A stretch of DNA of 62,718 nucleotides from a virus (IMGVR_UViG_3300028901_000105:1-62718), one strand, 5' to 3'; counted from the stretch's first letter, positions 5,760 through 57,749 are shown. Notes: generated from the letters alone by a model not told the origin. Translations and numbers: made by a program.

Positions 5760-5992
5760 TTTTCGCCTTTGGGCGAATTATCACCCAACAAAAATTCCGT
5801 ATCAACCCAGCCTGTAGAATAAATCTGATTAAGCCCAACATGGGATTGCGCCCATTGGCACATTTTTTCAAGGACTTCAGTAGAAGTCAATCCACCCGGC
5901 CAAGCATCCTCGCCGGAAAATCCAGCAAAGTATTCACGCTCGGTTTGAGGCCTCTTAATCAGCTTTATTGGTTCACGATCATTCATGTTCAA
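5756..5992 (-). CDS. Hypothetical protein next to the recombinase
   Basis: 78-aa ORF co-oriented with the recombinase gene. Confidence 0.55.
   Translation of the reverse strand: MNMNDREPIKLIKRPQTEREYFAGFSGEDAWPGGLTSTEVLEKMCQWAQSHVGLNQIYSTGWVDTEFLLGDNSPKGEN
5762..5777. repeat. TTCGCC-TTTG-GGCGAA palindrome copy 1
   Basis: Inverted 6-7 bp arms with a 4-nt centre. Lies 3 nt after the esterase stop and inside the 3' end of 5756..5992(-), where it reads SPKGE. Confidence 0.9.
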
Positions 5993-5996
5993 ATCC

Positions 5997-6905
5997 TTAT
6001 TGGTAACGTTCGTCTAGCTTTTCAGTGAGAGCATCCGCAGCACCCTTATTGACATGCTGCAAATAAATACTGGTCACACGAACGCTTTTGTGGCGCATCA
6101 ATCTGGAAACCTCTGTGATACGCGCTCCAGATCGCTCCGCATTCATCGCCGCTGTATGGCGCAAACTGTGAACACTAATGCCATGCCCCGGCCCAAAAAC
6201 AGCGTCACATCTTTTCTTGACCATGTACTGAATCTGATAGTATTTCATGCCAAACAATGGGGCATCATCTTCACGTTCAACTGTTTTGATGTAGTCGCGG
6301 AGCACCTTCGTGGTGTTTGTGGGCAACCTGCATTCTTCTTCGTCACCACCTTTATTGACGTAAGCAAAATACATCACACTCCCTTGATTGCGAAAACTGT
6401 CTACGGTCGCACTAGCGATAGCATCAAGTCGAACAGCCGTCGTCAAAAACAAAAGCAGTATGGTGTAATCCCGCTGCCCAATAAGAGTCTTTCGGTCAAT
6501 GGCCTTCAGCAGGTCTACATCCTGTCCATCTTCCAAGGCGGTTGCTTTGCCATAGGGGTTTACTGGAATATGGTGGACATCTTCAGCCGGATTGTCATCC
6601 CTCAGATAGCCTTTGTTTATCTTGATAAATTCATAGAACGACGAAATGGCTGACAGCTTTTGATTGACAGTCGCCGCTTTGTGCTTTTGCCCCAAAACGA
6701 TTTTCCATGCGCGTACATGGTCGCGTTCAACCGCGCCTGCATGAAGCCCGCAAAACGCATAAAACTGTTCCCACGCCCGATTGTAGGCTTCGCGGGTATG
6801 ACGTGACCTAAACTCCGAAATCCAAAGCACATAAGCCTGCTGCCATTCATCAGGAAGGGTACTATGAATTGCTGTTGTTTGATGGGGTGCTGTGATCTTA
6901 CCCAT
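5997..6905 (-). CDS. Tyrosine recombinase / integrase (XerC/D-like)
   Basis: Contains RDYTILLLFLTTAVRLD and the C-terminal HSLRHTAA...RLMRHKSVRVTSIYL (R..H-x-x-R..Y catalytic pattern). Start chosen at the internal ATG preceded by GGGAGAG; the longest ORF extends to 6968. Confidence 0.85.
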   Translation of the reverse strand: MGKITAPHQTTAIHSTLPDEWQQAYVLWISEFRSRHTREAYNRAWEQFYAFCGLHAGAVERDHVRAWKIVLGQKHKAATVNQKLSAISSFYEFIKINKGYLRDDNPAEDVHHIPVNPYGKATALEDGQDVDLLKAIDRKTLIGQRDYTILLLFLTTAVRLDAIASATVDSFRNQGSVMYFAYVNKGGDEEECRLPTNTTKVLRDYIKTVEREDDAPLFGMKYYQIQYMVKKRCDAVFGPGHGISVHSLRHTAAMNAERSGARITEVSRLMRHKSVRVTSIYLQHVNKGAADALTEKLDERYQ

Positions 6906-6997
6906 ACCCTTGCTCTCCCTAAGATTGGTTTCTACATAACAACCCATTATGTAGAATAATTTTAGCATGTGCGGTCTAGGTTTGCAAACGAACAGAC

Positions 6998-7027
6998 TTG
7001 CAATTTATAGAACAAATGTGTTAGTAT
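6998..7027 (+). promoter_or_regulatory. Promoter, GAAC-N4-GTGy family (TTGCAA-N18-TAGTAT)
   Basis: cTTGCAAtttatAGAACaaatGTGtTAGTAT lies upstream of the lysis-block gene at 7055. Confidence 0.5.
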
Positions 7028-7054
7028 TCTTTAGGGAATATCAATGGTGTCTCA

Positions 7055-7807: not shown

Positions 7808-9246
7808 GAATCGGTATCGGTATCCATTCGCACGGTCAAGGCATTGACCGCCAGCGGTTAAACAATTTCCTCATTACCACCCGCCCGGATTGGAACTTGG
7901 TGCTGGATGACTTGGACTACGCCAAGAAGGTTCGGGAACTGCTGCCCAACTCCAACGTCATCTTCCGTGAACATGGCGACAAGGGTGATGAAACCATTCA
8001 TCTGCAAAAAACACCGGAGGAATGGGTAACGTGGAAAAAGCCGCAGCTTGCCCAAGCACCCGGCGTCTGGATGCATACCAGCAATGAACCCCCCTTTGAT
8101 GCCAAAGTCCTCCAGTGGCACATCCGGCTGATGAAGCTGTGCGTCAAAGAGCGTATCCCGCTGGTTGTTGGCAGTTGGGCGGTTGGTGTTACGCCCAAGC
8201 CTGAAGAATTACCGAACTATCCTGACCTCAAGGAATTCCTGCAACTGCTGGATGAGCACCGCGATTTGTTCGTGTTGGGGCTGCATGAATACGGCTGTGG
8301 GGTGCTGACATCGGGATTGGTGGGCGGCGCACCGGATGACCCGGCACATCCCAATTACATCTTTCGTACAAATTGGCCGGAAAGCACAAGGGGGTTGACC
8401 AAGTTCCACTGTGGGCGTTTTGAGTTTCTGACCAACTATGCCCGGTCGCTTGGCCTTCGCGCCCCGCGTATCGTGCTGACTGAACATGGCCTCGATGACC
8501 TGAGCGACATCAAGTTCTGGTCGCAAACGCTCAAGGTCAAATCTGGCTACCTGAACATTCGCGGCTGGAAAACACTGACTGACCAATGGAACGATTGGTA
8601 CAGCAAGTACGGTTGGTCGCCTGAACAGGCTTACTTTGAAATGCTGAAGTGGGCTGACAAAGCCATCTACCAAAACACCGAAGTCGAAGGCCAAATCATC
8701 TTTTCGTGGGGTTATTCGTCCGGGGATTGGGATCAGTTCAATATCTCGGAAGCCTTCACGCTCCAACAGCAGCTTGCGCTGTACGCCTTTGAGCAGCCTG
8801 TACCCAAACCCGGTGAACCGCCTACTAACATTGGAATGCCGATGAAAGTTGTACTGCTACACGATACCCCGCTGTGTGCTGCGCCGCAGGGTGCAGCCAT
8901 TGAAACCCTGCCTGCTGGAACGGTGGGCATTCTGTACGGCATTCCAGAAACAAAGGTGGGGAATTATAGCTGGCGGTGGTTTCAGCGCGAAGGCGCACAA
9001 ACAGGCGGATTCGTCCGGTTCACCGATTTGCAGTACCGCACGTGGACACCTGAGCCGCCGCCCCCTGATCCAGAAAAGCCTACCACGCGGACGATTAAGA
9101 TCACCATCGAAGCAACCGACCCGGAACTGGCTGAACTGGCAACCTCCTATATGCAAGTCATGACCAACTTCGCGCAATACGTGGAGTTATGGCAGTCCCT
9201 TAAACCTTCAATTGTTGTGGCAATCCCACAAGGAGAAACATCGTGA
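7804..9246 (+). CDS. Putative endolysin: clan GH-A-like TIM-barrel glycoside hydrolase with C-terminal SH3b-like domain
   Basis: ATGA overlap with the upstream gene. The motifs MHTSNEPP and VLTEHGLDD resemble the acid/base and nucleophile strands of GH clan A. The C-terminal KVVLLHDTPL...GNYSWRWF is SH3-like. Confidence 0.55.
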   Translation: MRIGIGIHSHGQGIDRQRLNNFLITTRPDWNLVLDDLDYAKKVRELLPNSNVIFREHGDKGDETIHLQKTPEEWVTWKKPQLAQAPGVWMHTSNEPPFDAKVLQWHIRLMKLCVKERIPLVVGSWAVGVTPKPEELPNYPDLKEFLQLLDEHRDLFVLGLHEYGCGVLTSGLVGGAPDDPAHPNYIFRTNWPESTRGLTKFHCGRFEFLTNYARSLGLRAPRIVLTEHGLDDLSDIKFWSQTLKVKSGYLNIRGWKTLTDQWNDWYSKYGWSPEQAYFEMLKWADKAIYQNTEVEGQIIFSWGYSSGDWDQFNISEAFTLQQQLALYAFEQPVPKPGEPPTNIGMPMKVVLLHDTPLCAAPQGAAIETLPAGTVGILYGIPETKVGNYSWRWFQREGAQTGGFVRFTDLQYRTWTPEPPPPDPEKPTTRTIKITIEATDPELAELATSYMQVMTNFAQYVELWQSLKPSIVVAIPQGETS

Positions 9247-9800
9247 GTCGTGTTCGTTCGTTGTTCCTGCTTTATCTCGTGTTGTTCGTGCTTGTCCCGG
9301 TGGCCGCCGCACAGGATATTCCCGGCGTACCCACCACTGAAGACATTCTCGGCCCGGTCGCTGCAATCGCGGTCGCGGTCAATGCATTTGTAGAATTCGT
9401 CAAGCCGCGTGTTCGGACGACGAAATTCTCGGTTGGTGTACAAGACTCGCTGCTGCTATTGATCGCGGTGTCTGCGGGAATCGCTGCGGTGTTTATGGCT
9501 GGTGGGGCGGCGAACTTGTTTCCGAATATGCCAGTCCGCTACCAGACATTTGCGCTTATTCTTACAGGCGTAGTCGCGGCTTTCGGTGCTGAATTCCTGC
9601 ATGTGCTGGTCGATTTCTTGTACGCTGGTCGGGATTGGCTGCGACCGACGCCGGATGCATCCGAAAAGGTTTCGCGTTCGGATTTAAGCAAGGCGCTGCG
9701 GCGTAACGTCCCCGTGCCGGAAATTGGTACGGCTAAGGGGCAAATTGATGTGGATGTCTATCCTCGCTTGCACCCTTCGCCTCCTGACGAACGCAACTAA
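9243..9800 (+). CDS. Holin-like multi-pass membrane protein
   Basis: GTG start overlapping the upstream stop. Signal-like N-terminus plus about 3 hydrophobic helices. Last gene of the lysis block. Confidence 0.5.
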   Translation: MSRVRSLFLLYLVLFVLVPVAAAQDIPGVPTTEDILGPVAAIAVAVNAFVEFVKPRVRTTKFSVGVQDSLLLLIAVSAGIAAVFMAGGAANLFPNMPVRYQTFALILTGVVAAFGAEFLHVLVDFLYAGRDWLRPTPDASEKVSRSDLSKALRRNVPVPEIGTAKGQIDVDVYPRLHPSPPDERN

Positions 9801-10375: not shown

Positions 10376-10450
10376 AAGGGTGTAGCTTAACCGGAAAAGC
10401 ACCCGGCTCAAGGGCGAGGCGATACTGGTTCGAATCCAGCCACCTTTCCA
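10376..10450 (+). tRNA. tRNA-like element (non-canonical anticodon arm; G3:U70)
   Basis: 7-bp acceptor aagggtg/caccttt with a G:U at pair 3:70. D arm gctt-aaccggaa-aagc. T arm ctgg-ttcgaat-ccag. Followed by cca. The anticodon stem has only 3 of 5 pairs around the loop ctcaagg. Confidence 0.45.
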
Positions 10451-10549: not shown

Positions 10550-12778
10550 TTAGCGGTAAAGCGCCTGATTGTGGTCGCTAACGTGATGCCATATCCACGT
10601 TTCGTCAACTTGCGGTTCGCACTCGCTTACTTGACTCTTCTCTGGCAAATTGGGTTCCAACGTTCGCGTCACTTTGCGCTCAACGATGCCCCGGCCATCC
10701 GGTTCGCTCATCTGCTCGGCAACCGCGACCTTGTACCCCTTCTCAACCAAGAGGTTAATGTATTGGTCAACGGCATGATGCGGGACGCCCGCCATTGGCA
10801 CACGTTCATCACGACTGATCGGACGCCCGGTAAGCACCAAATCGAGTTCACGCGCGGCGGTTTCGGCATCGTCATCGAAGGTTTCGTAAAAGTCTCCCAA
10901 GCGGTAGAAAAGGATGTGATTGGGGTACTCTTTTTTAATGTCTAGGTATTGCTGGCGCAGCGGGGTAACACGGGTAGCAGACTTGAAGGCCGAAACAGTT
11001 TTGAACGCGCCGCCGCTGGCGACTTGTACGAATTTGTCATTAGCTGCTTGAACATCTGGGTCTTCGAGTGCCAGATGAACGACTGGTGACATATTCAGCG
11101 TTTCAGCAAATGCAGCATCAGCAGCGCGGGCAGCTTCATTGACTTGTTTCACCCAAGCGTCTGTTTTAGCAAGATCATCCTCAACAGGCGGTGCGGTTGT
11201 AACCATATCCCACAAGCAAAGCATTCCATGAGGAAGGTTTTCAAACCGCACAGTCAGCGCTAATGGGCCGCGATTCTCAACTTTGCCTTTTGTGCCAGCC
11301 GGAACAATGACCTTTCCTTGCTCGTGAATATCTTCACTGGCATAAATGGTTGAACCTTTCTTAATTGTCTTTAGCGTGGCGTCGCTAGCCCGAGGGATAG
11401 GCTTGAGATTTTCAGGCGGTGGTACTGGGAAATCCAGATCAATGCCGTTCTCTGCTGCCCATGCTTCGCCAGCTTCAGTTATTTCAATCTTTGCCCAATC
11501 GTTGGTATCGGTAATAAACCCATGCTCCCGCAATGCCTTGCGGGTTGCCGCGTTCTTGACAACCGGTTCGCCTTTCGCTAGTGCCTGAAGGAATTCAACC
11601 TGTCGCACTGGTAGCATTAGACTTGGCGTATCAATCCGAATTTCAGGCAGATTATGTTTCGCTGCATGGCAGTTCCGGCAAATCACCTTGCCATACGGCA
11701 GCCCCATTAATGGCTTTGCCCAACCCGGTTGTTGAGCAGCGCGGTTCGACTCCGAATCAAGAAACACGCCGCACACATCACAACATATCCAACCAAGCCA
11801 ATCTTGACCGGGTTTAAGATCGCGCTTGGAGTCGTTCTCAACCATGTAGGGGCTTGTGCCGTCGGCTTCATTACAAGGCGGCAGCTTCATCACGCATTCC
11901 CAGCAGTACAACTCGCCATTGCTGGGATATAGGTCTACGCTAAGCTGTCCACATTGGGTGCAATAACGTGCTTCTGACTTAGGCGAAAATTCGCGGATTT
12001 TGCCAAACGGTGTCGGGCTGAAATGCAGATCGCGCTCAATGCGTAAATTGTAATGCCCACGCGACGCTCGAATTTCAGTGAGAGGGATATATCCCCATTC
12101 AGCACCATCGGGATAATCTGAATTGTAGGCATACCCAAAAGCCACGTCGCTTTTCGGATCGTACTCCACGATGTACCATGTCCATGAACTGTCAGGCGTG
12201 AACCAGCGGACATGCACAATCTTTTCCGCTGCCGGAATGCTTTCGGTTTCGTACATACCGGGGATTGCATGGCCGGGCGGAATAAGCACATAAGCGCTAT
12301 TGGAAGCAGGCCAACGATTGGCGGGGCGCAGCAGATGAGTTGGAATGACGAGTGTTGCACCTTCTACTTGTACACGCGAATGGGCTGGTAGTTCGCGCTC
12401 GATTTTCAACCATGTACCTTTCAGCACACCTGATGGGCTATCCCATTCAACAGAGTCACCGTCGGTAAATGAAATAACATCGTTTTTCTGCACTGGCGGG
12501 GGCGCAGATGCTTGGATTGCAGGCTGTGGCGGCTCAGATACCTTAATCGGCGTTTTGGGGCTTTCTGGTGCGTTTAACAGCCCTTCCATGCCGTACACAC
12601 CATCTACAATTTGCTGCACAGCATCCGGCAGCTTTTCACCCGTGTAAATCCAACAAACCTTTTTGTCGTCCCATTTACACCCGGCTTGACGCAAAGCATC
12701 TTTGTATTGGGGAACAGCCTTGATCTCCCAACTTCCTTCGACCTTTTTTGCTGTAACTGATGTTTTTGCTTTCGTCAT
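10550..12778 (-). CDS. Multidomain protein: DUF5710-like N-terminus, DUF2958-like domain, zinc ribbons, C-terminal MutS domain I (mismatch-binding domain only)
   Basis: The C-terminus QQYLDIKKEYPNHILFYRLGDFYETFDDDAETAARELDLVLTGRP..PMAGVPHHAVDQYINLLVEKGYKVAVAEQM..VERKVTRTLEP aligns with the bacterial MutS N-terminus, including GDFYE. The mid region FTPDSSWTWYIVEYD..FGYAY..EWGYIPLTEI..IERDLHFSP is DUF2958-like. CxxC pairs are also present. Confidence 0.8.
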   Translation of the reverse strand: MTKAKTSVTAKKVEGSWEIKAVPQYKDALRQAGCKWDDKKVCWIYTGEKLPDAVQQIVDGVYGMEGLLNAPESPKTPIKVSEPPQPAIQASAPPPVQKNDVISFTDGDSVEWDSPSGVLKGTWLKIERELPAHSRVQVEGATLVIPTHLLRPANRWPASNSAYVLIPPGHAIPGMYETESIPAAEKIVHVRWFTPDSSWTWYIVEYDPKSDVAFGYAYNSDYPDGAEWGYIPLTEIRASRGHYNLRIERDLHFSPTPFGKIREFSPKSEARYCTQCGQLSVDLYPSNGELYCWECVMKLPPCNEADGTSPYMVENDSKRDLKPGQDWLGWICCDVCGVFLDSESNRAAQQPGWAKPLMGLPYGKVICRNCHAAKHNLPEIRIDTPSLMLPVRQVEFLQALAKGEPVVKNAATRKALREHGFITDTNDWAKIEITEAGEAWAAENGIDLDFPVPPPENLKPIPRASDATLKTIKKGSTIYASEDIHEQGKVIVPAGTKGKVENRGPLALTVRFENLPHGMLCLWDMVTTAPPVEDDLAKTDAWVKQVNEAARAADAAFAETLNMSPVVHLALEDPDVQAANDKFVQVASGGAFKTVSAFKSATRVTPLRQQYLDIKKEYPNHILFYRLGDFYETFDDDAETAARELDLVLTGRPISRDERVPMAGVPHHAVDQYINLLVEKGYKVAVAEQMSEPDGRGIVERKVTRTLEPNLPEKSQVSECEPQVDETWIWHHVSDHNQALYR

Positions 12779-13097: not shown

Positions 13098-13126
13098 ATT
13101 ATACCGGGTATTACCCGGTATTGCAA
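13098..13126 (-). promoter_or_regulatory. Sigma70-type promoter with palindromic operator in the spacer (P1)
   Basis: The minus strand reads TTGCAA-TACCGGGTAATACCCGG-TATAAT. The 19-bp perfect palindrome TACCGGGTA-N-TACCCGGTA is at 13102-13120. Confidence 0.75.
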
Positions 13127-15023: not shown

Positions 15024-15052
15024 ATGTTACCGGGTAATACCCGGTATGTCAA
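15024..15052 (-). promoter_or_regulatory. Sigma70-type promoter with palindromic operator in the spacer (P2)
   Basis: The minus strand reads TTGACA-TACCGGGTATTACCCGG-TAACAT. The palindrome is at 15028-15046. Confidence 0.7.
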
Positions 15053-15172: not shown

Positions 15173-16861
15173 TTACCGAAATTCAATCCGCGATTTCTCC
15201 GCCAGTTTTGCTTTCGCGGTCGTCAGGTCATCGGTCGTGAGCAGATAATCAACTTCCGCAATCAACCGACTCAACCGCAGTTGATACATCAATTCCAACA
15301 CATCATCTGGCTTGGTGTCGGACGGCTGGCTCACAATGGCCCATTGGTCAGCATCTAAACAGCTTTCTAGGTAAGCAATGGGTTCTACATCAAACTGCCC
15401 AATGGCATCCGTGAACATTTCGTAGACGTCTCCGAAGGTGGGAAAATCTTCGGCTTCAGGCGGTGGCGCTTGTACTTGACGAAAGCTGCGCCGGATACCA
15501 TCATACAATCCCGGCTGTGCGACCAGCGCCCGGATCACCGCTGTTTCAATACCCACGAGTTCTATGCGGGGGGCTTCATCTTCCGCCCATTTCTCCGGTA
15601 CATGTCCAGTCGCCATCATCAACACCTGATCAACAGGCAGCCGCAACCGGGCCGCTAAGGATTGCACATTCCACATTTTATAAATATCGCTCTCGCAGGC
15701 CATCAACGGTGGAATCAGGCGTTTAACCAGTTCGACGCGCTGCGGTAGTGAGGCATTTTCAGGCAGCGATTCGCAGCCTGTGCGGATGATGTAATCCGCA
15801 ACCGGTTCGGCACTACTCACCAAATCGCGCCACTGCTGCGGCGACTGCCTGATAATATCGTCCGGGTCGTGGTCAGCGGGCAATGTCATGACATACACAT
15901 CCCGTTCGGATTTCACCAGCGGTTCAATATTGCGGGCGGCGGCTTGCTGCCCAGCCTTATCGCCATCCAGCGCCAGCACAATCGATTTACTACCGCGCAG
16001 CAGTTTCAGGTGTGCGTTGGTGAGCGCCGTTCCCATCTGTGCCACAACATTCTTAAAGCCTGCCTGCCATGCCTGCATTGCATCCATGTAGCCTTCGACG
16101 ATCACCACCTGATCGCGGCACATTTCCCGGTCATAAGCAAACAACAGGCGCGATTTGCTGAAGATCGCCGTTTCCGGCCCATTCAGGTATTTGGGCTGCT
16201 GGTCATCAGCCATTGCACGTCCGGCCAGCGATACCACCCTGCCCCGTTCATCCCGAATAGGAATGATGAGTCGATTCCGAAACAGGTCATACACCCCTTT
16301 TTCAGAACGCCCCGCGAGGCCAGCCGCAAGGATTTCGGCTTCGGTGTAGCCCTGCTTTTTGAGATGATTCAAAAGCGTCTGATACCCGGATGGTGCATAC
16401 CCCAACTGAAAATGCTGCACGGTTGCAGGATTCAACTGCCGTTTTGTTTCGATGTAGGTTCGCACATCTGCCGCGCCGTTCCATTCGAGCAGGCAGCGAT
16501 GATAGACCTCGACAGCGGCAGCCAGCAGCCCATACAACTTTTCAGCATGGAAAGCGGCTTGTTTTTCGGCAGACGTTTGGCGTTTAACCTCAACGCCGAC
16601 CTGCTTACCCAATTCTTGAAGCGCCTCGCCAAATGACCAGTTGTTTCGCCTTTGGGCGAAAGCGATCACATCACCCCCGACCGCACACGCGCCGTAACAG
16701 TGCCACGTCTGCCGAATCGGGTCAACCATAAAACTGGGGGACTTTTCGCTGTGGAAAGGACACAAGCCTTTATAATGGCGTCCGGCTTTTTTGAGTTGAA
16801 CAAACTGCCCAACATAAGCAACAATGTCCAACCGCGCCTTGATGTCATCGACCGCGCTCAT
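15173..16861 (-). CDS. dnaG: DNA primase (DnaG-type)
   Basis: CHC2 zinc finger CPFHSEKSPSFMV..WHCYGCAVGGD. TOPRIM segment VVIVEGYMDAMQ..LALDGDKAGQ. Confidence 0.9.
   Translation of the reverse strand: MSAVDDIKARLDIVAYVGQFVQLKKAGRHYKGLCPFHSEKSPSFMVDPIRQTWHCYGACAVGGDVIAFAQRRNNWSFGEALQELGKQVGVEVKRQTSAEKQAAFHAEKLYGLLAAAVEVYHRCLLEWNGAADVRTYIETKRQLNPATVQHFQLGYAPSGYQTLLNHLKKQGYTEAEILAAGLAGRSEKGVYDLFRNRLIIPIRDERGRVVSLAGRAMADDQQPKYLNGPETAIFSKSRLLFAYDREMCRDQVVIVEGYMDAMQAWQAGFKNVVAQMGTALTNAHLKLLRGSKSIVLALDGDKAGQQAAARNIEPLVKSERDVYVMTLPADHDPDDIIRQSPQQWRDLVSSAEPVADYIIRTGCESLPENASLPQRVELVKRLIPPLMACESDIYKMWNVQSLAARLRLPVDQVLMMATGHVPEKWAEDEAPRIELVGIETAVIRALVAQPGLYDGIRRSFRQVQAPPPEAEDFPTFGDVYEMFTDAIGQFDVEPIAYLESCLDADQWAIVSQPSDTKPDDVLELMYQLRLSRLIAEVDYLLTTDDLTTAKAKLAEKSRIEFR
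16645..16660. repeat. TTCGCC-TTTG-GGCGAA palindrome copy 2
   Basis: Inside dnaG. This is the only coding copy in a different frame (FAQRR). Confidence 0.9.
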
Positions 16862-19707: not shown

Positions 19708-20418
19708 CTAGAATGGAATGTCGTTGTCGGGCGGCGGAACGTAATCCGTTACAGGCTCACGCGCCTTTTCAGGCGTTTGCCCCAAGTTTCCGTAGATTTG
19801 ATCGGCTACAGCCTGAACAGTCAGAAAGGCTTCCGGGCTGGTCGGATTCAAATCACCCACATGGACTAGACTCGGCAGTGGCGTAACCGTCTCAATCATC
19901 TTGATCGGCGGCAGCTTATCCAGTTCCTTCGACAAAATTTTCCCGGTCATCTTGGTTCCGTGAACGGCCATGAATGGGGCGCATTCTTCAAGCTGACGGA
20001 AGGTTTGTTCCTTGTCGTCGTAGCGCCCAAGCAGCCATCTCCGGGTAGCGTCAGTATCCAGCTTCAACAACTGAGTCTGTAACGCGCGAGGGGCATTCAG
20101 CACCCACAGCAGAAATTGACTGGCGTCATAGGTGACAGTTGCTTCTGTCGCGGCTTGGAATGCGCCATGTGTCTTTTCACCCGTCAGGTGATAGCGGGCA
20201 ATGGCGGCCTTTTGCAGTTCGGTTTTTAAGGCGTCGGCAGGCGCTTTGGCGTCGTCATAGGCTTTTTTGGCAGCATCGGCGGCATCCTGAAGGGCTTTGT
20301 ATTTGCGCCCCTGCTCGGCAAGATCGGCGTCCAGTTTTTGCAACAAGGCTTCGCTGTCACCTTCATGGGCTGCAAGGCCACCGCTTAATAGGTCATCTGG
20401 CAGATATTCAAAAGGCAT
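19708..20418 (-). CDS. Coiled-coil (Gp157-like) protein ending in an SSB-type acidic tip ...DNDIPF
   Basis: The N-terminal half is Ala/Lys/Asp-rich coiled coil. The last residues PPPDNDIPF match the conserved bacterial SSB C-terminal tip D-D-D-I-P-F. Confidence 0.5.
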   Translation of the reverse strand: MPFEYLPDDLLSGGLAAHEGDSEALLQKLDADLAEQGRKYKALQDAADAAKKAYDDAKAPADALKTELQKAAIARYHLTGEKTHGAFQAATEATVTYDASQFLLWVLNAPRALQTQLLKLDTDATRRWLLGRYDDKEQTFRQLEECAPFMAVHGTKMTGKILSKELDKLPPIKMIETVTPLPSLVHVGDLNPTSPEAFLTVQAVADQIYGNLGQTPEKAREPVTDYVPPPDNDIPF

Positions 20419-35143: not shown

Positions 35144-35172
35144 ATTATACCGGGTATTACCCGGTATGTCAA
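35144..35172 (-). promoter_or_regulatory. Consensus sigma70-type promoter with palindromic operator in the spacer (P3)
   Basis: The minus strand reads TTGACA-TACCGGGTAATACCCGG-TATAAT. The palindrome is at 35148-35166. Confidence 0.8.
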
Positions 35173-38347: not shown

Positions 38348-38420
38348 CCACTCGTCGGCTAGTCGTCTAGGCCGCCTCCTTCTCAGGGAGGAAACGCAGG
38401 TGCAAATCCTGCCGAGTGGT
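38348..38420 (+). tRNA. tRNA-like gene, anticodon CUC (Glu) by position; atypical D and T loops
   Basis: Acceptor ccactcg/cgagtgg (7 bp). D stem ggct/ggcc. Anticodon stem cctcc/ggagg with loop ttCTCag. T stem gcagg/cctgc with loop tgcaaat. Followed by cttttcgttt. The D loop lacks GG and T-loop position 55 is G. Confidence 0.55.
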
Positions 38421-38438
38421 CTTTTCGTTTATGGGGAG

Positions 38439-38454
38439 TTCTCCAATGGGCGAA
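38439..38454. repeat. TTCTCC-AATG-GGCGAA, degenerate palindrome copy (1 mismatch)
   Basis: Overlaps the RBS and start of 38446..38733. Confidence 0.6.
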
Positions 38455-38733: not shown

Positions 38734-38837
38734 GCAAAAAGCGGAATTTTTAGGTATAATTGATTCACCATAAGACAACGCGCTCACGTTGCTATGAACA
38801 ACTGAGCGCGCGAGTAACCAATTGGAGCTTGGCTACT

Positions 38838-39635
38838 ATGGCTAATTTTACATCATGTCCAGACCAATACAAACGCTGTACGATGTGTCAGCAATGTATT
38901 CCAGCAACCCCGCAATATTTTCTTCGCAACAAATTAGGGCTTTACGGACTCCAAGCATATTGCAAGGAATGTTCTGCTGCTTTAAGGCACGGGTGTCTCT
39001 GCAAAATTGATCCGTACAAAGCCTCACAAAAAAAGCCATGTGCAAAGTGTAGGGAAATCAAATCAGCAGAGGGATTTTACCCTGCAAAACGAGGCTTACT
39101 TGGTCGTAGAACGATATGTATTGCCTGCGAGAAAGAGTTGCAACACAGCAATTTACCAAGAATCCGCGTCAAGCAACGGATAAGGTATCACAATAATCCA
39201 CAAGTAGGCAAATCAATTAAAGATTGGCAGATTGCCAATTTTCAAAAAGTCAAAAGTTTTAAACAAAGCTGGAAAAAGAACAATCCTGAACAGGTGCAAG
39301 TTGCAAGCCTTCGTCGGCGCGCCCGCATTTATAGTTTGCCCGACACTTTTACCCACAAAGAATATCAACAGATGATGGAATATTGGGGATATGCTTGTGC
39401 AATTACGGGGCAAACCGCTGATTTGCATGTTGACCATTGGATTCCTGTCGCTCATGAAGATTGCCCCGGAACTGTTGCCATAAATCTTATCCCATTGGCG
39501 GCTCATCTAAATTTAAATAAGCATCGAAAACCCCCTCATCAATGGCTTTATGAAACATTCCCAGAAGATCAAGCAAGGATAATACTGGAACGCATAGAAG
39601 CCTATTTTGAGTGGGTTAGGTCGCAAGCCGACTAA
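38838..39635 (+). CDS. HNH endonuclease, paralog 2
   Basis: CTMCQQCIPATPQYF..YCKECS, then VDHWIPVA..NLIPL..LNLNKH, and the shared C-terminus IEAYFEWVR. Internal Met start after GGAG. Confidence 0.7.
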   Translation: MANFTSCPDQYKRCTMCQQCIPATPQYFLRNKLGLYGLQAYCKECSAALRHGCLCKIDPYKASQKKPCAKCREIKSAEGFYPAKRGLLGRRTICIACEKELQHSNLPRIRVKQRIRYHNNPQVGKSIKDWQIANFQKVKSFKQSWKKNNPEQVQVASLRRRARIYSLPDTFTHKEYQQMMEYWGYACAITGQTADLHVDHWIPVAHEDCPGTVAINLIPLAAHLNLNKHRKPPHQWLYETFPEDQARIILERIEAYFEWVRSQAD

Positions 39636-40598: not shown

Positions 40599-40692
40599 GA
40601 TAGGCATAGGCAGTCTAGGGTAGCTCCCAAAAAGCGGTAAACCTCACCGTCTGGCTGTCTAAACATCAAGAGGTGTAGCATAGAGGTGTGCT

Positions 40693-41439
40693 ATGAATGT
40701 CCCCGCAAAGGCTTGTACATGCTGCAAGCGTGAATTTCCAGCTACGACAGAATTTTTCTACAAATCGAAAACGGGGCGCGATGGCCTTATGTCGGAATGC
40801 AAAGAATGCCGACGCGCCTACGCGAAAGTGCAGGGTCAGCGTCCGGAAGTTATCGCGCGTGATAAAGCCCGACGAAAAACACCCAAGTTCAAGGATCGCA
40901 ATCGGGAATATCAACGCGAATGGATGCGACTCCCTGAAAACAAGGAACGCAGCAAGCGTTATCGTGATGCGAATAAAGATCGGATACGCATTCGAGACGC
41001 TGAATACCGTTCACGCCCTGAACAACTAACCAAGCAACGAGTACGGCGGCAATCCGAAGATTACAAGACTTATATGGGAATCTTTGGACTAAAAAGACGT
41101 GCGCGGCGCAAGGGATTACCGTCAACGCTCACAAAGGCAGATTGGGAACGGGCGTTAGATTATTGGGGAAATCGGTGTTGTATTTGCGGCAAAGAAGCTG
41201 ATTCTTGTACAGTGATTGCAAGAGAACACTGGATACCCCAATGTAAAGGGGGCGGATATACCCCCGAAAATATTCTACCCATGTGTCATTCTGTTAAGGG
41301 TGGTAGAGGCGGTTGTAACAATACTAAAAACAGCACAGACCCTATCAAGTGGCTTGTGCATAAATTAGGAGAAGAAAGCGCACTCCTAAAACTAGCTGAG
41401 ATTAATGACTATTTTGAATGGGCAAGTCAGCAAGGGTGA
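40693..41439 (+). CDS. HNH endonuclease, paralog 3
   Basis: CTCCKREFPATTEFF..SECKECR, a basic repeat region, EHWIPQCKGG..NILPMCHS..CNNTKN, and the C-terminal INDYFEWA. Confidence 0.7.
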   Translation: MNVPAKACTCCKREFPATTEFFYKSKTGRDGLMSECKECRRAYAKVQGQRPEVIARDKARRKTPKFKDRNREYQREWMRLPENKERSKRYRDANKDRIRIRDAEYRSRPEQLTKQRVRRQSEDYKTYMGIFGLKRRARRKGLPSTLTKADWERALDYWGNRCCICGKEADSCTVIAREHWIPQCKGGGYTPENILPMCHSVKGGRGGCNNTKNSTDPIKWLVHKLGEESALLKLAEINDYFEWASQQG

Positions 41440-46283: not shown

Positions 46284-47903
46284 ATGACCCGCTTTGATGC
46301 CGCCGCAGATCGTCAGTTAAGGACGAGCGATTTGCTCTCCATGAACAGTGATTACACGATCATGGGTTGGGCTTATTTGTCGTCTGATACCAATACCTAT
46401 CAGACGTTCTACGGGGTATCCGACGACAGCACCAACAACTTCGACACCTGTGGCGCAAGTGCCGATGGCACAACCTTCATGGTTGGGCGAACCAATGGTG
46501 GCGCTGGTACGTTCGTCGAAAATACAGGGACGGTGCTGTCCTTAAATACGTGGTATCACTGGTGCGTGGTGCGGTCGGGCAGCAACTTGACCGGGTATCT
46601 GAATGGCGTTCAGGATGTCACCATCAGCAGCAGCATCAGCGGACGTGCGGCTGCTACACGCATGGAACTCGGTGGGGCAACCTCTGCTAATCTTTCTCGG
46701 CTGGACGGGCGCGAAAATTACATCAAGGCATGGGCGGCTGCCCTCACGCTGGCGGAAATCAACATTGAACGCCCGCTGATTCGTCCAACACGGCTGGCAA
46801 ATCTGTATGGTTGGTGGCCGCTGCTGGCGGGCAGCGCCGAAAGATTGCGGGACTATTCAGGATTCGGACGGGCATGGACTGAAGTCGGAACGCTGACGGA
46901 TGAAGACCAACCCCCTGTTGCATGGGGCGGCTCGATTTATGTCATAGCACCGAACTTCAGCGTTGCGATAACACCCAATCCAGTCAGCGCGGCGGCATCT
47001 AAGATTGACCCAACGGTTGTACTTGGAAGCCTATCCCTATCACCCAACCCGGCAGCCAGCAGCGCGGCGGTTGTTGACCCTACAACCGTTTTAGGCAGCG
47101 TCGCCATTACCCCTTCGCCAGTAAGTGCTGCATCCAACGTAATCGCCCCCACTGTCGTACTCGGCAACGTTGTAATCACCCCTGCCAGCGCCGATAGTGT
47201 GACCGCAGTGGTCACGCCGGATGCGGTGTTGGGCAGTCTGACGATTGCCCTTGATCCTGTTCAGGCTGTTGCTGCGGTTGTTGCGCCGACTGTGCTGGAA
47301 GGCTCTGTTTCCATTACGCCATCCCCAGTGGCAACCGCCGCGTCTGGCGTCGATCCGATTGTGGCGATGGGCAGTCTGAGTCTTTTGCCTGCGGCAGCAG
47401 CGGCGGCAGCAGGTGTTATTGATCCGACTGTTGTGCTGGGCAGTATTGTCGTAGCACCGGGGGCGGCTAATGCGGTAGCAACGACCATAGCGCCAACAGT
47501 GGAAGGCGGCGGAATCATCTTCACGCCTGATCCGGCTTTGGTAGCAGCAGTGAGTGTCAATCCTGATGTTGTATTGGGCAGTCTGATTTTGACACCGCAA
47601 TTTGCTTCAGCGGTTGCGACAGTTCTTGATCCAACGGTCGTAGCAGGCGGTGATTTGGTAATTGCGCCAAATTCAGCATTCGCAGTCTGTACAACTTTCC
47701 AGCCAGATATCATTTTGAGCAGTGTTGTAATTACGCCCGCAGCAGGTGAAGTTGTAACAACCGTAAATAACCCTGCGGTCTTAGTTGGCTCACCTGAAAC
47801 ATCCGGCAGTGTGATAGTTACTACGCAACCTGCCGGGAGCGTTGCGTTTGCAATCATCCATGCGGGGACATTGACCATAGATATTCAACCGAGGGACTCA
47901 TGA
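46284..47903 (+). CDS. LamG-domain protein with 12 tandem 23-aa repeats (putative head or virion fibre)
   Basis: N-terminal YTIMGWAYL...WYHWCVVRSGSNLTGYLNG...YIKAWAAALT (LamG pattern), then repeats of the form ITPxPVxAAxxxxDPTVVLGSxx. Confidence 0.6.
   Translation: MTRFDAAADRQLRTSDLLSMNSDYTIMGWAYLSSDTNTYQTFYGVSDDSTNNFDTCGASADGTTFMVGRTNGGAGTFVENTGTVLSLNTWYHWCVVRSGSNLTGYLNGVQDVTISSSISGRAAATRMELGGATSANLSRLDGRENYIKAWAAALTLAEINIERPLIRPTRLANLYGWWPLLAGSAERLRDYSGFGRAWTEVGTLTDEDQPPVAWGGSIYVIAPNFSVAITPNPVSAAASKIDPTVVLGSLSLSPNPAASSAAVVDPTTVLGSVAITPSPVSAASNVIAPTVVLGNVVITPASADSVTAVVTPDAVLGSLTIALDPVQAVAAVVAPTVLEGSVSITPSPVATAASGVDPIVAMGSLSLLPAAAAAAAGVIDPTVVLGSIVVAPGAANAVATTIAPTVEGGGIIFTPDPALVAAVSVNPDVVLGSLILTPQFASAVATVLDPTVVAGGDLVIAPNSAFAVCTTFQPDIILSSVVITPAAGEVVTTVNNPAVLVGSPETSGSVIVTTQPAGSVAFAIIHAGTLTIDIQPRDS
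46968..47792 (+). repeat. Twelve diverged tandem 69-bp coding repeats
   Basis: Periodic ..P.P..A.....(D/A)PTV(V/L)LGS.. in the translation. 825 bp divided by 69 is about 12. Confidence 0.8.
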
Positions 47904-49335: not shown

Positions 49336-49607
49336 ACCAACTTCCCAAGTTTAACTATTTCACTGACGTGCTGATTTATATCTGCGATACGTTCAATCTC
49401 GATCACCAGACGATGATTCTGCTCAGACAGCGGCTTGAGAAGGCATTTCACAGTCAAGGCAAGCCCAAGAAAAAAACACCTGCAACCCTGATGCAAATCG
49501 CACTATTGATGCTGTCGGACTTCAATGCAGGACGCACAGTTCAACAGGTTCTTGATCGGTCAGACAAGGACTTTATCAAGCTGGCACGAAAGGTTAAACC
49601 CCAATGA
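49332..49607 (+). CDS. Hypothetical protein
   Basis: 91-aa ORF, coupled. Confidence 0.55.
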   Translation: MNQLPKFNYFTDVLIYICDTFNLDHQTMILLRQRLEKAFHSQGKPKKKTPATLMQIALLMLSDFNAGRTVQQVLDRSDKDFIKLARKVKPQ

Positions 49608-50851
49608 AGATGGCACTTGGGTTTATGTTCCAGAACGAAGCGGCGTGGATAAATCTTCACCTGCCAGTGCTGTTGAAATCCGCTATGGTGGATGGCGTGG
49701 TTGCCATTGATGGCGGTTCAACGGATGGCGGGCGGCAGGTGATTGAGTCGCTCGGCGGCCAAGTCCGTGACCGGGTGTGGGACTGGAAACCGTGCGAACA
49801 GGAAAACGCGGTGATTCAGTTTGCCGAAGCAGAAGGTTATGACGCCCTGATGCTGGTCGCGCCGGACGAATTGTGGTTTCCTGAACATCTCGACCAGATC
49901 AAAATGTTTTTGGCAGGCGGACAATACAAGGCGCTGCGTTTCCCCACCTACAACTTCATGAAAGACCGTCTGCATTATTCGCCTGTTCCCCCGTATTACC
50001 CGGACGCACATGTACGCGCGTGGATGTTGAATGAGGGCGTTCGGCATGTGGGGGCGCTGGACAGCGTTCCCAACACGGATGCATTAGGGTGGTACGAGGG
50101 CGATAAGCTGCTGTCTGTCCCGCATATTCACCTGTACCACTATGCCCACATCAAAAATCGGGCGTGGTACACCCTAAAGGGACTCAATTTTCACCGCGTC
50201 AAAGACGGACTTTCGCCTTTGGGCGAATTACCGGAAGGCACACCGCTGGCCGCTTACCCAATGACCATTCCGTTTGTGGGGGTGCAGCCGCTAGACCCAT
50301 CTGTAGGGAAACGTGCGCCGCTGCCCTACTTTGAAGAAACACCCGCCCAAACCAGCAATGGGGCGTTTATGTACAAATCATTTGCAGTAAACCACCAAGA
50401 GACATTTACAAATTGGGAATGGCTGCCCGAAATACACACGGCCATCCATCTGGGCAGTGGTATAGGCGAATTCGGCGTTGGGCTAAAAAAGAAATTCCCC
50501 AATGCACAGCTTATTACTGTCGAAACCGTAGAACCAAAAGGGACGGATTTAATTCAACTTAACCTTGCACATTGGCCTGACGTGTATTGCTATGAGTGGA
50601 AAGACGAATCTGATCGTTCAGGGCAAGGCGGAGCACAGTTACTAGAAACAATGTTACACCGTCATCTGATGCCAGAGGTTGATCTGCTGTACCTTGATGC
50701 CCGCCCATATTATCAGGCGGTGTTCAATAACCTGCCTGTAGAGCATCAGCAGCGGTTTAAGTGGATTATCACATCCGGGGTTATTGCGCCAGCAACCCAC
50801 GAAGAAGTGATGCGCGTGAATGGAATGGTCTACTGGAGGCGGAAGGCGTGA
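49604..50851 (+). CDS. Glycosyltransferase-like (GT-A fold) protein with possible methyltransferase-like C-terminal half
   Basis: VVAIDGGSTDGG and LMLVAPDELW (DxD-like) in the N-terminal half. IHLGSGIGEFG in the C-terminal half. Contains palindrome copy 5 (reads SPLGE). Confidence 0.4.
   Translation: MKMALGFMFQNEAAWINLHLPVLLKSAMVDGVVAIDGGSTDGGRQVIESLGGQVRDRVWDWKPCEQENAVIQFAEAEGYDALMLVAPDELWFPEHLDQIKMFLAGGQYKALRFPTYNFMKDRLHYSPVPPYYPDAHVRAWMLNEGVRHVGALDSVPNTDALGWYEGDKLLSVPHIHLYHYAHIKNRAWYTLKGLNFHRVKDGLSPLGELPEGTPLAAYPMTIPFVGVQPLDPSVGKRAPLPYFEETPAQTSNGAFMYKSFAVNHQETFTNWEWLPEIHTAIHLGSGIGEFGVGLKKKFPNAQLITVETVEPKGTDLIQLNLAHWPDVYCYEWKDESDRSGQGGAQLLETMLHRHLMPEVDLLYLDARPYYQAVFNNLPVEHQQRFKWIITSGVIAPATHEEVMRVNGMVYWRRKA
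50212..50227. repeat. TTCGCC-TTTG-GGCGAA palindrome copy 5
   Basis: The 20-mer tttcgcctttgggcgaatta is identical to copy 1 (5761-5780). Confidence 0.9.
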
Positions 50852-55622: not shown

Positions 55623-56632
55623 TGAAAGCTATAAACTGGGTTGCGTACCGGTTTATCAAAGAGGATGGCTACGGGCGCTTTGGCATCAATATGGTGCGGG
55701 CGCTCGTGGCCGCTGGCCTACAGGTTACACCCGGTACGACAGAAGCGATAGCGGAACTGCCCGCTTGGATGCAGAACCTTGCAGGCTGGAATTGGGGGAA
55801 TACCACCATCCAGTGCCTACCCGCAAACATGGCAATGCCTCTCGCGGGGCGCAGCTTTATTTTTTCCATGACCGAAGATACAGGCTGTCCCAAAGATTGG
55901 CCTGACAAGATCAACACCATCGCGGAACGGCTGATTGTCCCCTGTGAACAAAACGTGGAAGCCTTTCAGCGGCGGGGTGTCAAATGCCCGATTCATGTGG
56001 TGCATGGCGGCACAAACCCCGAAGAATTTCCGGTCATTGAAGCCCCACAGAATGGCCGCCCATACACGTTCCTCTGTTTGGCGGATCGCCTGCCGCGTAA
56101 AGGCACAGAGGTTGTATGGAGTGCCTTCTACAAGGCGTTTGAAAATAACCCTGATGTACGGTTGATTGTTAAAGGGCGTCCGTCGTCCATGCAGTGGCTC
56201 AACACGTTCAACTTTGTGGACAAACGCATCACCTTTTGGAAAGCGGATGTGGAGTCGATGGCGGATGTGTTCGCCCAAGTGGATTGTTTCGTATTCCCCT
56301 CATTCGGGGAAGGGTGGGGGATGCCACCGCGCGAAGCCGCCATGATGGGTTTGCCTGTGATTGCGACCCGCTGGAGTGGACTGGAAGTTGGCATTGATGA
56401 ATGGGCGATTCCGGTCAACACGTTCAAGATGGGCGAAAGCACACTGCCACATGGCAGCAGTCAATGGGCGCTCCCTGATCTGGACGAGGTTATCGCCCAT
56501 ATGCGCTGGTGTTACGAAAATCAGGACGCAGCGCGGATGCGCGGGCGCAAAGCGGCTGCATGGCTGCGCGAAAACCAGACATGGAAACACAGCGCCCAAC
56601 AAGTAATGAGGCTGCTCGAAGAACATGGCTAA
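55622..56632 (+). CDS. Family 1 (GT4-like) glycosyltransferase
   Basis: FVFPSFGEGWGMPPREAAMMGLPVIAT (E-x7-E motif). TAATG coupling to the capsid gene. Confidence 0.7.
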   Translation: MKAINWVAYRFIKEDGYGRFGINMVRALVAAGLQVTPGTTEAIAELPAWMQNLAGWNWGNTTIQCLPANMAMPLAGRSFIFSMTEDTGCPKDWPDKINTIAERLIVPCEQNVEAFQRRGVKCPIHVVHGGTNPEEFPVIEAPQNGRPYTFLCLADRLPRKGTEVVWSAFYKAFENNPDVRLIVKGRPSSMQWLNTFNFVDKRITFWKADVESMADVFAQVDCFVFPSFGEGWGMPPREAAMMGLPVIATRWSGLEVGIDEWAIPVNTFKMGESTLPHGSSQWALPDLDEVIAHMRWCYENQDAARMRGRKAAAWLRENQTWKHSAQQVMRLLEEHG

Positions 56633-57011
56633 CCTAACTGCAACAGAGATTGAGCGCATTCGCCGCAAAATCGGAGACAATGGTGTTCCCCAAGAGGGAG
56701 GAGAGCCGAAATACACATTCCAAGACTCCGAAATCCAAGATGAATACGATGCTGCGGGCGGGGACTTCAATAAGACAATTCTTGCGCTATATGAGGATTT
56801 GCTTGGCAGTGCGTGGCGCTTCCACGACTACACCCAAAACCAATCCGACGAAAAGAAGCAGCAGATTTTTAAGAATCTGGAAGCTGCTGCTAAATGGTGG
56901 CGGCAAAAGGTTGCAGACGATACAGCCATAGCCACTAGAGCAGTGCCGCGTATCATCGGCGTTGAAGTTGTTCCGCCAGATGACAAATCTGCACCGGAAG
57001 GGTGGGACTGA
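56625..57011 (+). CDS. Head-tail connector protein (putative)
   Basis: 128 aa. Call rests on position after the capsid block. Confidence 0.45.
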   Translation: MANLTATEIERIRRKIGDNGVPQEGGEPKYTFQDSEIQDEYDAAGGDFNKTILALYEDLLGSAWRFHDYTQNQSDEKKQQIFKNLEAAAKWWRQKVADDTAIATRAVPRIIGVEVVPPDDKSAPEGWD

Positions 57012-57382
57012 TGGACATCAATGTGATTACCGGGCAAGGCCAACCGATTGAGGCAACCGAACGGGCGACTGATGCATGGTCACATATCCTCGAAAAACCC
57101 ACCAGCATTGTGCTTGTGCGTGGCAAAAATACGACCCTTGCTGCACAAACCGTCCGCATTGAATTTACCAGCACCACGCGCGGCACAGAGGTTACAGGGC
57201 AGGGGGGCGGTCAATCTTCTAACCAATCCGTTGTCATCTTTGGTGTACGCGATCATCCCACCATTCCCGATACCAACATTGAACGTGACGACCGTTTTGT
57301 TGAGGATGGCATTTTCTTCCGAGTCACCGATGTTGTGAAAACCATCGGGCAAATCCAAGCGAACGCAGATGCCAACCAATGA
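57002..57382 (+). CDS. Head closure / head-tail adaptor protein (putative)
   Basis: 126 aa. Call rests on position. Confidence 0.45.
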   Translation: MGLMDINVITGQGQPIEATERATDAWSHILEKPTSIVLVRGKNTTLAAQTVRIEFTSTTRGTEVTGQGGGQSSNQSVVIFGVRDHPTIPDTNIERDDRFVEDGIFFRVTDVVKTIGQIQANADANQ

Positions 57383-57728
57383 GATTCGTTGGTATGGCAT
57401 CGAAGAAATGCAGACCAACATCCGCAAATATGGCGAAGCGGCGCGTTTTGCAGTGGTGCAGGTTGCTCAATACTGGCAGCCTGTTATAGAAACCTTCGCC
57501 AAAAACAACGCCCCGTGGACAGATCGCTCTGCCAACGCCCGCCAATCCTTAGAAGCATGGGTAGATGATCTCTCCGAAGATACGGTTAAACTCTACCTCT
57601 CCCACGGAATGACATATGGCATTTTCCTTGAAACCCGTTGGGCAGGGCGTTATGCCATCATCTGGCCGACGCTTGAGCAGCACCTTGAACCGATTGCCCA
57701 AATGCTGCGCGGCATCTTCGGGCGCTGA
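57369..57728 (+). CDS. HK97 gp10-family tail-completion protein
   Basis: APWTDRSANARQSL...YLSHGMTYGIFLE pattern. Confidence 0.55.
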   Translation: MPTNEIRWYGIEEMQTNIRKYGEAARFAVVQVAQYWQPVIETFAKNNAPWTDRSANARQSLEAWVDDLSEDTVKLYLSHGMTYGIFLETRWAGRYAIIWPTLEQHLEPIAQMLRGIFGR

Positions 57729-57749
57729 TTTTCGCCAATGGGCGAAAAT
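57728..57749. repeat. ATTTTCGCC-AATG-GGCGAAAAT palindrome copy 6 (only intergenic copy)
   Basis: 9-bp arms. Starts at the last base of the gp10-like stop codon. Confidence 0.9.

Follow-up and report, generated by a model that had tools for sequence, protein, structure and literature searches.

ParB-family proteins act at palindromic sites of 13–16 bp (the KorB OB sites of RK2, parS, the Noc-binding sites (NBS), and the N15 centromeres) that are spread over a replicon and often lie within genes; these sites are bound by dimers, act at a distance, and differ in specificity between related replicons. Stoperators number tens per genome. Other elements include HIP1 of cyanobacteria, an over-represented palindromic 8-mer found largely in genes at about one copy per kb, the lambdoid nut/boxB elements, which are short, phage-specific stem-loops that co-vary with their N proteins, keep their loop conserved and number two per genome, both intergenic, and the REP elements, which are longer and extragenic; a hairpin beside a stop codon can alter how the preceding gene is expressed. 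The subject of this report is the dyad TTCGCC-N4-GGCGAA, which recurs in the virus genome IMGVR_UViG_3300028901_000105, a stretch of 62,718 nucleotides that is referred to throughout as the window. Two kinds of dispersed site are relevant to its interpretation. Stoperators are spread genome-wide, differ in motif between related phages, and are oriented relative to transcription (PMC6550527; PMC9283540). Uptake sequences build up within coding sequence, favouring certain reading frames and residues of low conservation, and make the peptides that they encode more frequent (PMC2817400).

The evidence presented below makes it very probable that TTCGCC-N4-GGCGAA is a selected nucleic-acid element, read sequence-specifically by a trans factor whose specificity shifts between related phages. 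Phage genomes tend to be interpreted one gene at a time; such an element would be a non-coding signal superimposed on genes with enough force to determine amino acids, as in the loss of a conserved Asp in a glycosyltransferase, and it is kept at the same protein positions over relatives with just 32–50% protein identity. An earlier note, made from the sequence of the window only, had listed the copies and their preferred reading frame; the present analysis adds conservation in relatives, variant site types, polarity, an association with stop codons, and even spacing.

A repeated dyad in one reading frame

The window holds six exact copies of the dyad (Table 1), with the coordinates and centres that the earlier note had given. 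Shuffles that preserve dinucleotides gave a mean of 0.00 exact copies, none yielding even one, and among window dyads with 6-nt arms TTCGCC-N4-GGCGAA is by far the most repeated. When up to one mismatch is allowed there are eight matches, with 0.27 expected, the added copies being those at 38439 and 9776; the latter is possibly a decayed or weak site. The finer observations of the note are also correct, namely the 20-mer shared by the first and fifth copies, the 18-bp palindrome at 32572, and the 9-bp arms at 57731, as are the frames that it assigned (SPKGE, SPMGE, SPMGE, and SPLGE, with FAQRR in dnaG). Codon-aware randomisation, which the note had named as a possible refutation, did not reproduce the counts. 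Synonymous codons were shuffled within every open reading frame (ORF), preserving the proteins and codon usage, and the mean was 1.17 copies, one of them the unshuffled intergenic copy. This leaves an expectation of ~0.17 intragenic copies, as against five observed, and none of 1000 shuffles attained six. Wherever SPxGE occurs in the ORF set, it is the motif that encodes it.

Table 1. Exact and one-mismatch copies of the dyad in the window
Position	Strand	Copy	Sequence	Setting
5762–5777	+	exact	TTCGCCTTTGGGCGAA	begins 2 nt past the TAA stop of gene 4710–5759 (SASA esterase domain); also the C-terminal end, SPKGEN, of a doubtful minus-strand ORF, 5756–5992; adjoined by the integrase gene 5997–6968 (minus strand)
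9776–9791	+	one mismatch	TTCGCCTCCTGACGAA	C-terminal tail of ORF 9243–9800, in frame, ending SPPDERN
16645–16660	+	exact	TTCGCCTTTGGGCGAA	within dnaG (15173–16861, minus strand), after the zinc ribbon; sole out-of-frame copy, FAQRRN; NNTG centre on the strand antisense to the gene
26244–26259	+	exact	TTCGCCCATGGGCGAA	HSPMGET, predicted loop, residues 82–91 of the 307-amino-acid (aa) protein 26002–26925
32573–32588	-	exact, 18-bp perfect palindrome	TTTCGCCCATGGGCGAAA	ISPMGET, variable C-terminal linker of UvrD-like helicase 32225–34291 (minus strand)
38439–38454	+	one mismatch	TTCTCCAATGGGCGAA	18 nt past tRNA-Glu; no hairpin fold; in the largest gap between exact copies
50212–50227	+	exact	TTCGCCTTTGGGCGAA	LSPLGEL, GT2-type glycosyltransferase 49604–50851
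57731–57746	+	exact, 9-bp arms	ATTTTCGCCAATGGGCGAAAAT	starts 2 nt past the TGA stop of gene 57369–57728; next gene 46 nt downstream

On the sense strand the consensus is T-TCG-CCN-NYG-GGC-GAA-A, with inverted arms of 6–7 nt whose centres lie 10 bp apart. The arm sequence is invariant inside each genome, and the flanking positions −1 and +1 are invariably A or T but non-complementary in 7 of 15 cases, from which it follows that sequence is conserved and not merely pairing. The degenerate copy at 38439 that the note had described does differ by one mismatch; the longer ORF by which it would encode a further SPMGE is probably not the true one, as the central ATG (38446) is the probable start codon (MGECY…) and has a GGGGAG ribosome-binding site upstream.

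Relatives with 32–50% protein identity to the window were compared at the DNA level, and at such divergence synonymous sites should be randomised. (Contigs other than the window are designated by L numbers.) Helicase homologues share a conserved core of ~530 residues followed by an unalignable linker, and SPxGE occurs in that linker in 22 of the 120 best homologues. The linker site is exact in L116 (TTCGCCAATTGGCGAA) and L117 (..CGTG..), whose proteins have 38% and 41% identity to that of the window, and takes a hybrid form in L115. In the 307-aa family, SPxGE occupies the same loop in the window, L076, L198, L199, and L200, encoded by the exact motif in all five, and other family members have unrelated residues there. 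The SPxGE codons are TCG, GGC, and GAA in 11 of 12 readable cases, the exception being a hybrid GGT that is also a genome-wide type; the background frequencies of these codons are 0.17, 0.37, and 0.75, respectively. The pattern that the note had held would speak against its proposal, an SPxGE peptide conserved among orthologues and encoded by varied DNA, was therefore not found, and its view of a DNA- or RNA-level element tolerated in one frame is borne out by Ser, Gly, and Glu codons that are kept across relatives. Judged from these alignments, the element is conserved as nucleic acid and not as peptide. Further in-frame copies lie at non-orthologous positions, one in L284, where it belongs to the C-terminal tail of a 79-aa protein, and one in L114, in a low-complexity linker of the DnaD-like protein. 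Across the clade the motif is patchy, being present in L284, L198, L116, and L117 and missing from L118, L285, and L201.

Comparison of orthologues with and without the site also indicates how the sites arose. Nine equal-length homologues in the GT2 family read G-L-x-P-L-D-x-L-P where the window reads G-L-S-P-L-G-E-L-P, and the site at 50212 was thus made by substitutions, with loss of a near-invariant Asp. The loop of the 307-aa family is 13 residues long both with and without the site. An in-frame or miniature palindromic insertion, as the note had also envisaged, is contradicted by these comparisons: the ortholog alignment that it had suggested for detecting an insertion of 15–18 nt revealed no length difference in either family. 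A Rickettsia-type in-frame palindromic element or a miniature inverted-repeat insert was rejected on the same ground, as there is no indel between orthologues with and without the site.

Site types, polarity and placement

Relatives carry variants of the site that all keep the 6-N4-6 layout, and each genome has one type throughout, which argues for a trans factor with a specificity that changes between phages. TTGACC-N4-GGTCAA occurs five times (up to one mismatch) in 21 kb of L362, with 0.06 expected, and as two exact copies in L201, and L119 has TTCACC-N4-GGTGAA. L115 carries an asymmetric form, TTCGCC-N4-GGTGAA, in four exact copies in 22 kb (0.02 expected), each in a different gene and all four on the coding strand; two copies of this form are found in L363. 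A scan for further genomes with the asymmetric variant returned orthologous sites only, plus one doubtful antisense case in L399. In the series TTCGCC to TTCACC to TTGACC the changes are mirror-image. In the S-P-x-G-E phase the TTGACC type reads T-TGA-CC, and it supplies the stop codon of the upstream ORF at position 10888 of L362 and position 14200 of L201.

The S-P-x-G-E frame has the property that its wobble positions (1, 4, 7, 10, 13, and 16) pair with each other across the dyad. No other frame shows this mirroring, which applies to either strand. Because wobble is paired with wobble, a change at positions 4 and 13 is synonymous on both sides, and the half-sites can change together; for a 16-bp dyad the rule offers a general explanation of why such an element settles in a single frame. 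A second polarity is seen at position 10, where the sense strand has G in 10 of the 11 x codons other than Met, compared with an NNG usage of 0.22–0.30 for Thr, Val, and Ala. The form TTCTCC…GGCGAA was seen in frame twice independently, at 38439 in the window and at 3066 in L407; it cannot pair, and its recurrence favours recognition of the duplex.

When independent gene families are counted, five intragenic sites are in frame and one, that in dnaG, is out of frame. The intragenic settings are interdomain linkers, loops, and C-terminal tails. The three intergenic copies (5762 and 57731 in the window, 15824 in L198) lie exactly 2 nt past a stop codon and are thus in phase; the note had recognised the arrangement for 57731 and had taken it to be the only such copy, whereas 5762 likewise follows a stop. 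Other sites form the ends of proteins, as SPTGE in L115 and L119, SPPDERN at 9776, and SPMGETPGS in L284. We read this distribution as that of a required element packed where proteins tolerate it, a reading by which the exact 2-nt distance from the stop is only partly explained.

Several conventional explanations were tried and rejected. No T run follows the motif copies on either strand and the hairpins are just 6–9 bp, which does not fit an intrinsic (rho-independent) terminator. In an Rfam search the gathering score was reached by two tRNAs and an int-alpA RNA only, with no overlap with any site, and explanations by a known RNA family or a tRNA were dropped. No −10 or −35 elements were seen at a fixed distance from the sites, and an ordinary promoter operator was rejected because the promoter operators of this phage are a different, 21-bp palindrome and the sites overlap no consensus promoter.

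A candidate binding site and its rivals

By analogy with stoperators and KorB, we tentatively regard the dyad as a genome-wide binding site for a dimeric DNA-binding protein that would serve as a roadblock, silencer, or organiser. A dimer would bind each dyad on double-stranded DNA, contacting the arms and leaving the 4-bp, AT-leaning centre free, and seven to eight sites at intervals of ~9 kb would let the protein act genome-wide, by blocking or silencing transcription or by organising the genome. In a genome that is almost wholly coding, the sites would go to linkers, surface loops, C-terminal tails, and post-stop positions, and the frame used would be the one that gives the flexible peptide S-P-x-G-E, in which wobble mirroring permits joint synonymous change of the half-sites. 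The features that suggest a duplex target and a dimer are the invariant arms placed one helical turn apart, the free AT-leaning centre, the A/T flanks that do not covary, the unpairable TTCTCC variant that was seen twice, and the even spacing. The window is the whole genome, assembled as a circle, with an exact terminal direct repeat of 141 bp (1–141 and 62578–62718) and a true length of 62,577 bp, and on the circle the seven sites that include 38439 are separated by intervals of 5.9–11.8 kb (coefficient of variation 0.245), ~9 kb on average; ~0.1% of random placements are as even. The six exact sites alone give an evenness P of ~0.014. A protein-binding dyad had been among the candidates of the earlier note and stays the best of them, while its proposal of a nuclease or methylase target found no support.

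A number of observations weigh against a dimer bound to DNA. The spacing test was conceived after the data were seen. No binder was identified among the phage candidates considered: the AlphaFold model of the 307-aa protein (predicted local distance difference test, pLDDT, 81.6) gave no match in a Foldseek search of the PDB, and L114 and L119 share the same putative recognition helix in this protein despite their different site types. The protein was set aside as a ParB/KorB-like helix-turn-helix protein, having no Pfam hit, only a PHROG of unknown function, and no structural match in the PDB. The MerR-like regulator is found in motif-less genomes and was not seen in the motif-bearing L116 and L117; it is better suited to the operator-in-spacer palindrome described below, and a role for it as binder was dropped. 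Partition cassettes differ in kind among genomes that share the motif, the TTCGCC type occurring with ParA/ParB-like cassettes in L116 and L117 and with a cassette of 431-aa and 131-aa proteins in the window and L284. A ParB-type centromere was rejected because the TTCGCC type is shared across these different cassettes and no ParB was found among the window proteins scanned. That Pfam scan covered the ORFs from ~4.7 to 41 kb, the large terminase subunit, the 46284–47903 protein, the GT2 protein, and ORF 57369–57728; the one weak ParB_N hit was in the relative L117. Polarity is also awkward for this reading, as a symmetric dimer does not predict that all four L115 sites have the same asymmetric form on the coding strand, and the G at position 10 also tracks that strand. 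Lastly, an unrelated phage contig of 62% GC has at least seven copies, an observation that is easier to reconcile with a host factor than with one encoded by the phage.

The polarity is more readily accommodated by a hairpin in the sense-strand RNA or in single-stranded DNA, with a stem of 6–7 bp and a tetraloop, acting in the transcript. We consider this doubtful, although it is a rival to be taken seriously; the hairpin would be read by a sequence-specific RNA-binding protein or ribonuclease, or would exert effects on transcription or translation at gene ends (3′-end protection, attenuation, or ribosome release). All exact copies are predicted to fold, at −9 to −14.5 kcal/mol and with z-scores of −2.2 to −3.6, and the variants are related by compensatory changes, G4-C13 to G4·U13 to A4-U13, plus a flip of C3-G14 to G3-C14. 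However, C13 to T and G4 to A are the sole synonymous CpG transitions, and mutation bias could mimic the compensatory path. At all four L115 sites, which are non-homologous, the sense transcript would form the hairpin with a G·U pair, whereas the antisense strand has A·C and loses the stem, and the position-10 polarity tracks the coding strand. The positions of the sites also lend themselves to a function in the transcript: three intergenic copies lie 2 nt past stops, others end C-terminal tails, and in the unrelated phage two copies lie between two tail genes of one operon. Against this, the constancy of the arms within each genome and the lack of covariation in the flanks imply that sequence is read and not structure alone, the loop is variable, which is unusual for protein recognition of hairpins, and the in-frame TTCTCC…GGCGAA form of two phages is unpairable. 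Copies deep within ORFs and the even spacing around the genome lack an obvious transcript-level rationale, and the missing U run after the stems and the lack of an Rfam match give no link to intrinsic terminators or a known RNA family.

A broader formulation, which strikes us as unlikely, would be a frame-locked regulatory code, in which a stem-loop or dyad with coding-strand polarity is kept at domain junctions and gene ends, clade-wide and in at least one unrelated phage, and co-evolves with its factor via the path from G-C to G·U to A-U. That path would be possible only because the S-P-x-G-E frame pairs wobble with wobble. If it is true that the element acts in the transcript or during transcription, by programmed pausing, processing, or roadblocking between domains or genes, tailed phages would have a hitherto unrecognised class of control element within their genes.

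A link to the host, rather than to a phage protein, we hold to be quite improbable; the motif would be used by a host protein or process such as a nucleoid or segregation factor, an uptake- or Chi-like signal, or biased repair of the kind considered for highly iterated palindromes. The unrelated carrier, IMGVR_UViG_3300037246_001819 (51 kb, GC 0.62; L299, L333, L339, and L358), has at least seven exact copies, mostly TTTCGCCAATTGGCGAAA; four of seven fall in a long ORF, where they read SPIGE, and two are found 54 bp apart between tail genes. No proteins common to this contig and the present clade were found in the 31 kb of it examined, and its enrichment in the motif suggests a host factor or a binding-protein gene that is mobile. 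The patchy presence of the motif in the clade, which no candidate phage gene tracks, is in keeping with a host link, and a preference for reading frames and poorly conserved residues is shared with uptake sequences (PMC2817400). The density of one copy per 9 kb is low for such a signal, however, and L114, L115, and L119 are near-identical in the 307-aa protein yet differ in site type, so that each change would call for a switch of host. The exact preservation of sites at orthologous positions in deeply diverged phages suggests that selection has acted within the phage lineage.

An in-frame recombination linker or nuclease hotspot, at which modules would be exchanged, perhaps through HNH cleavage and RecT-like repair, with the frame keeping fusions in frame, is very improbable. 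Sites do lie at gene ends and at domain junctions (between the helicase core and its tail domain, and where the N-terminal part of the 307-aa protein meets its remainder), the strict frame holds even for post-stop copies, and the phage encodes a RecT-like protein and three proteins read from their translations as HNH. Yet 16 bp is very short for homologous exchange, the differing site types of close relatives would block it, and no mosaic breakpoint at a site could be shown, close relatives of the window being lacking. Finally, a miniature palindromic insertion (resembling a miniature inverted-repeat transposable element, a Rickettsia palindromic element, or a transposon footprint) or a functional SPxGE peptide can hardly be credited, even though 18 bp make six in-frame codons and SPxGE recurs in unrelated proteins, since sites arise by substitution with no change of length, the codons are invariant and their counts are not recovered by codon shuffling, intergenic, post-stop, and out-of-frame copies exist, and the TTGACC type places a stop codon in the same phase.

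The genome-wide binding site for a dimeric protein thus stays our tentative choice among these readings. Whichever factor reads the element, the seven defined sites, together with three specificity variants that occur naturally and an asymmetric intermediate, offer a handle for finding a DNA- or RNA-binding protein.

Genome context and comparison with known systems

The window encodes a tyrosine integrase, a MerR-like regulator, DnaB, DnaG, a UvrD-like helicase, a DnaD-like initiator, a RecT-like protein, a HerA/DUF87 ATPase, the large terminase subunit, and a structural module. A tape-measure-like ORF of ~980 codons spans the junction of the circle, and the listed minus-strand ORFs at 60013–62619 are probably antisense artefacts of it. 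A megablast comparison with INPHARED gave no near relative of the window genome, the terminase matches cultured phages at 41% at best, and a helicase search of IMG/VR found no relative. In an exact-pattern scan of IMG/VR with TTCGCCNNTGGGCGAA, the matches listed were mostly chance singletons, with the relatives L076 and L114 among them. Nine contigs (L292, L297, L304, L332, L353, L359, L361, L305, and L345; IMG/VR sample 3300045988 and others) share an identical local sequence, GGTTTCGCCGTCAGGCGAAATT, which seems to be a single gene segment conserved in another phage group, with the motif present by chance. Helicase-alignment scans of metagenome and genome collections were dominated by distant UvrD-like genes, and no prophage or host was found in them.

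The label of glycosyltransferase given by the earlier note to the 415-aa protein of 49604–50851 holds, as homologues carry PF00535 (GT2). The protein itself is without a Pfam or PHROG hit and consists of a GT2 domain (residues 1 to ~240) and an extra C-terminal domain. Its only full-length homologue (52% identity) is encoded by L407, the phage-like contig JAEUQX010000222.1 of the Anaerolineae metagenome-assembled genome GCA_016788625.1, which is the sole hint of a host (Chloroflexota); the epimerase gene of L407 contains an in-frame TTCTCCAATTGGCGAA (SPIGE). CGATCG, for which ~15 occurrences are expected, and GCGATCGC are both at zero in the 62.7 kb of the window (52% GC), and GATC occurs 192 times. 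CGATCG is likewise at zero in several relatives, and its lack looks like avoidance of a restriction site tied to the host.

A second palindrome, ATACCGGGTA-W-TACCCGGTAT (21 bp), is found at 13101–13121, 15027–15047, and 35147–35167. On the minus strand its copies fill the 17-nt spacer of near-consensus sigma-70 promoters (TTGACA … TATAAT at 35148). These three promoters probably drive most of the early leftward transcription; an operator within the spacer is a layout of the MerR type, and the MerR-like gene at 27483–27947 (minus strand) is a plausible regulator of them. Next to that gene lies the cassette at 28182–31323, with proteins of 431 aa and 131 aa and an ATPase of the DUF87/HerA type that seems to end in a winged helix. 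We read the 431-aa protein, from its DLGFGTCD motif, as putatively actin- or ParM-like. At the same place L116, L117, and L285 have ParA and a ParB-like gene, and the swap suggests a plasmid-prophage or DNA-segregation module that is exchanged between types.

Other features include tRNA-Glu(CUC) at 38348–38421, tRNA-Leu(CAA) at 10376–10449, which decodes UUG, the central codon of three motif copies, and a match to the int-alpA RNA family at 40608–40673 (41.9 bits; gathering score 35.8). A 742-aa protein (10550–12778) combines DUF2958 with a C-terminal MutS domain I (mismatch-binding), the rest of MutS being missing. The products of 35186–35917, 38760–39635, and 40693–41439, clustered upstream of the terminase genes and with no Pfam hit at E ≤ 0.001, appear from their translations to be paralogous HNH-type nucleases with N-terminal CxxC repeats. 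The protein of 19708–20418 ends in …PPPDNDIPF, like the acidic C-terminal tip of bacterial single-stranded DNA-binding protein (SSB), and may be a phage SSB-like hub protein.

Literature searches on the exact strings gave no match, and a concept-level search returned nothing specific. With regard to elements that act through a hairpin, the dyad differs from boxB and REP in being mostly intragenic and in having a variable loop. The uptake signal sequences (USS) of Pasteurellaceae and the DNA uptake sequences (DUS) of Neisseriaceae are asymmetric and present in hundreds to thousands of copies in the host genome, in contrast to a dyad with few copies per phage, and HIP1 is absent from the window, where both CGATCG and GCGATCGC have no copies. 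The half-site geometry of parS and NBS is also different, the TTTC core of the present element lying 3 bp further from the dyad axis.

The stoperators of Cluster A mycobacteriophages, recognised by immunity repressors of the L5 gp71 type, likewise consist of many sites distributed genome-wide, including within structural operons, and away from promoters; here, seven to eight sites lie around a 62.6-kb genome and none overlaps a consensus promoter. As for orientation relative to transcription, most of the present sites are palindromic, and a direction is seen in the L115 form (coding strand, 4/4) and in the G at position 10 (10/11), with the dnaG copy as an exception. Stoperators are asymmetric 13-bp sites bound by a monomer, unlike the present element, which is mostly a perfect dyad, has seven to eight copies per 62.6 kb, and often lies in frame in coding sequence. 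Site types differ between relatives here, and no homologue of the stoperator repressor was identified. The element could decide the question of whether whole genomes are silenced or organised in the manner of stoperators or KorB beyond mycobacteriophages and IncP plasmids. Its genome-wide logic is that of the nearest known systems; its dyad form, its fixed frame, and its deep positional conservation inside genes, as they appear from the sequences compared, are features that those systems do not have in common with it.

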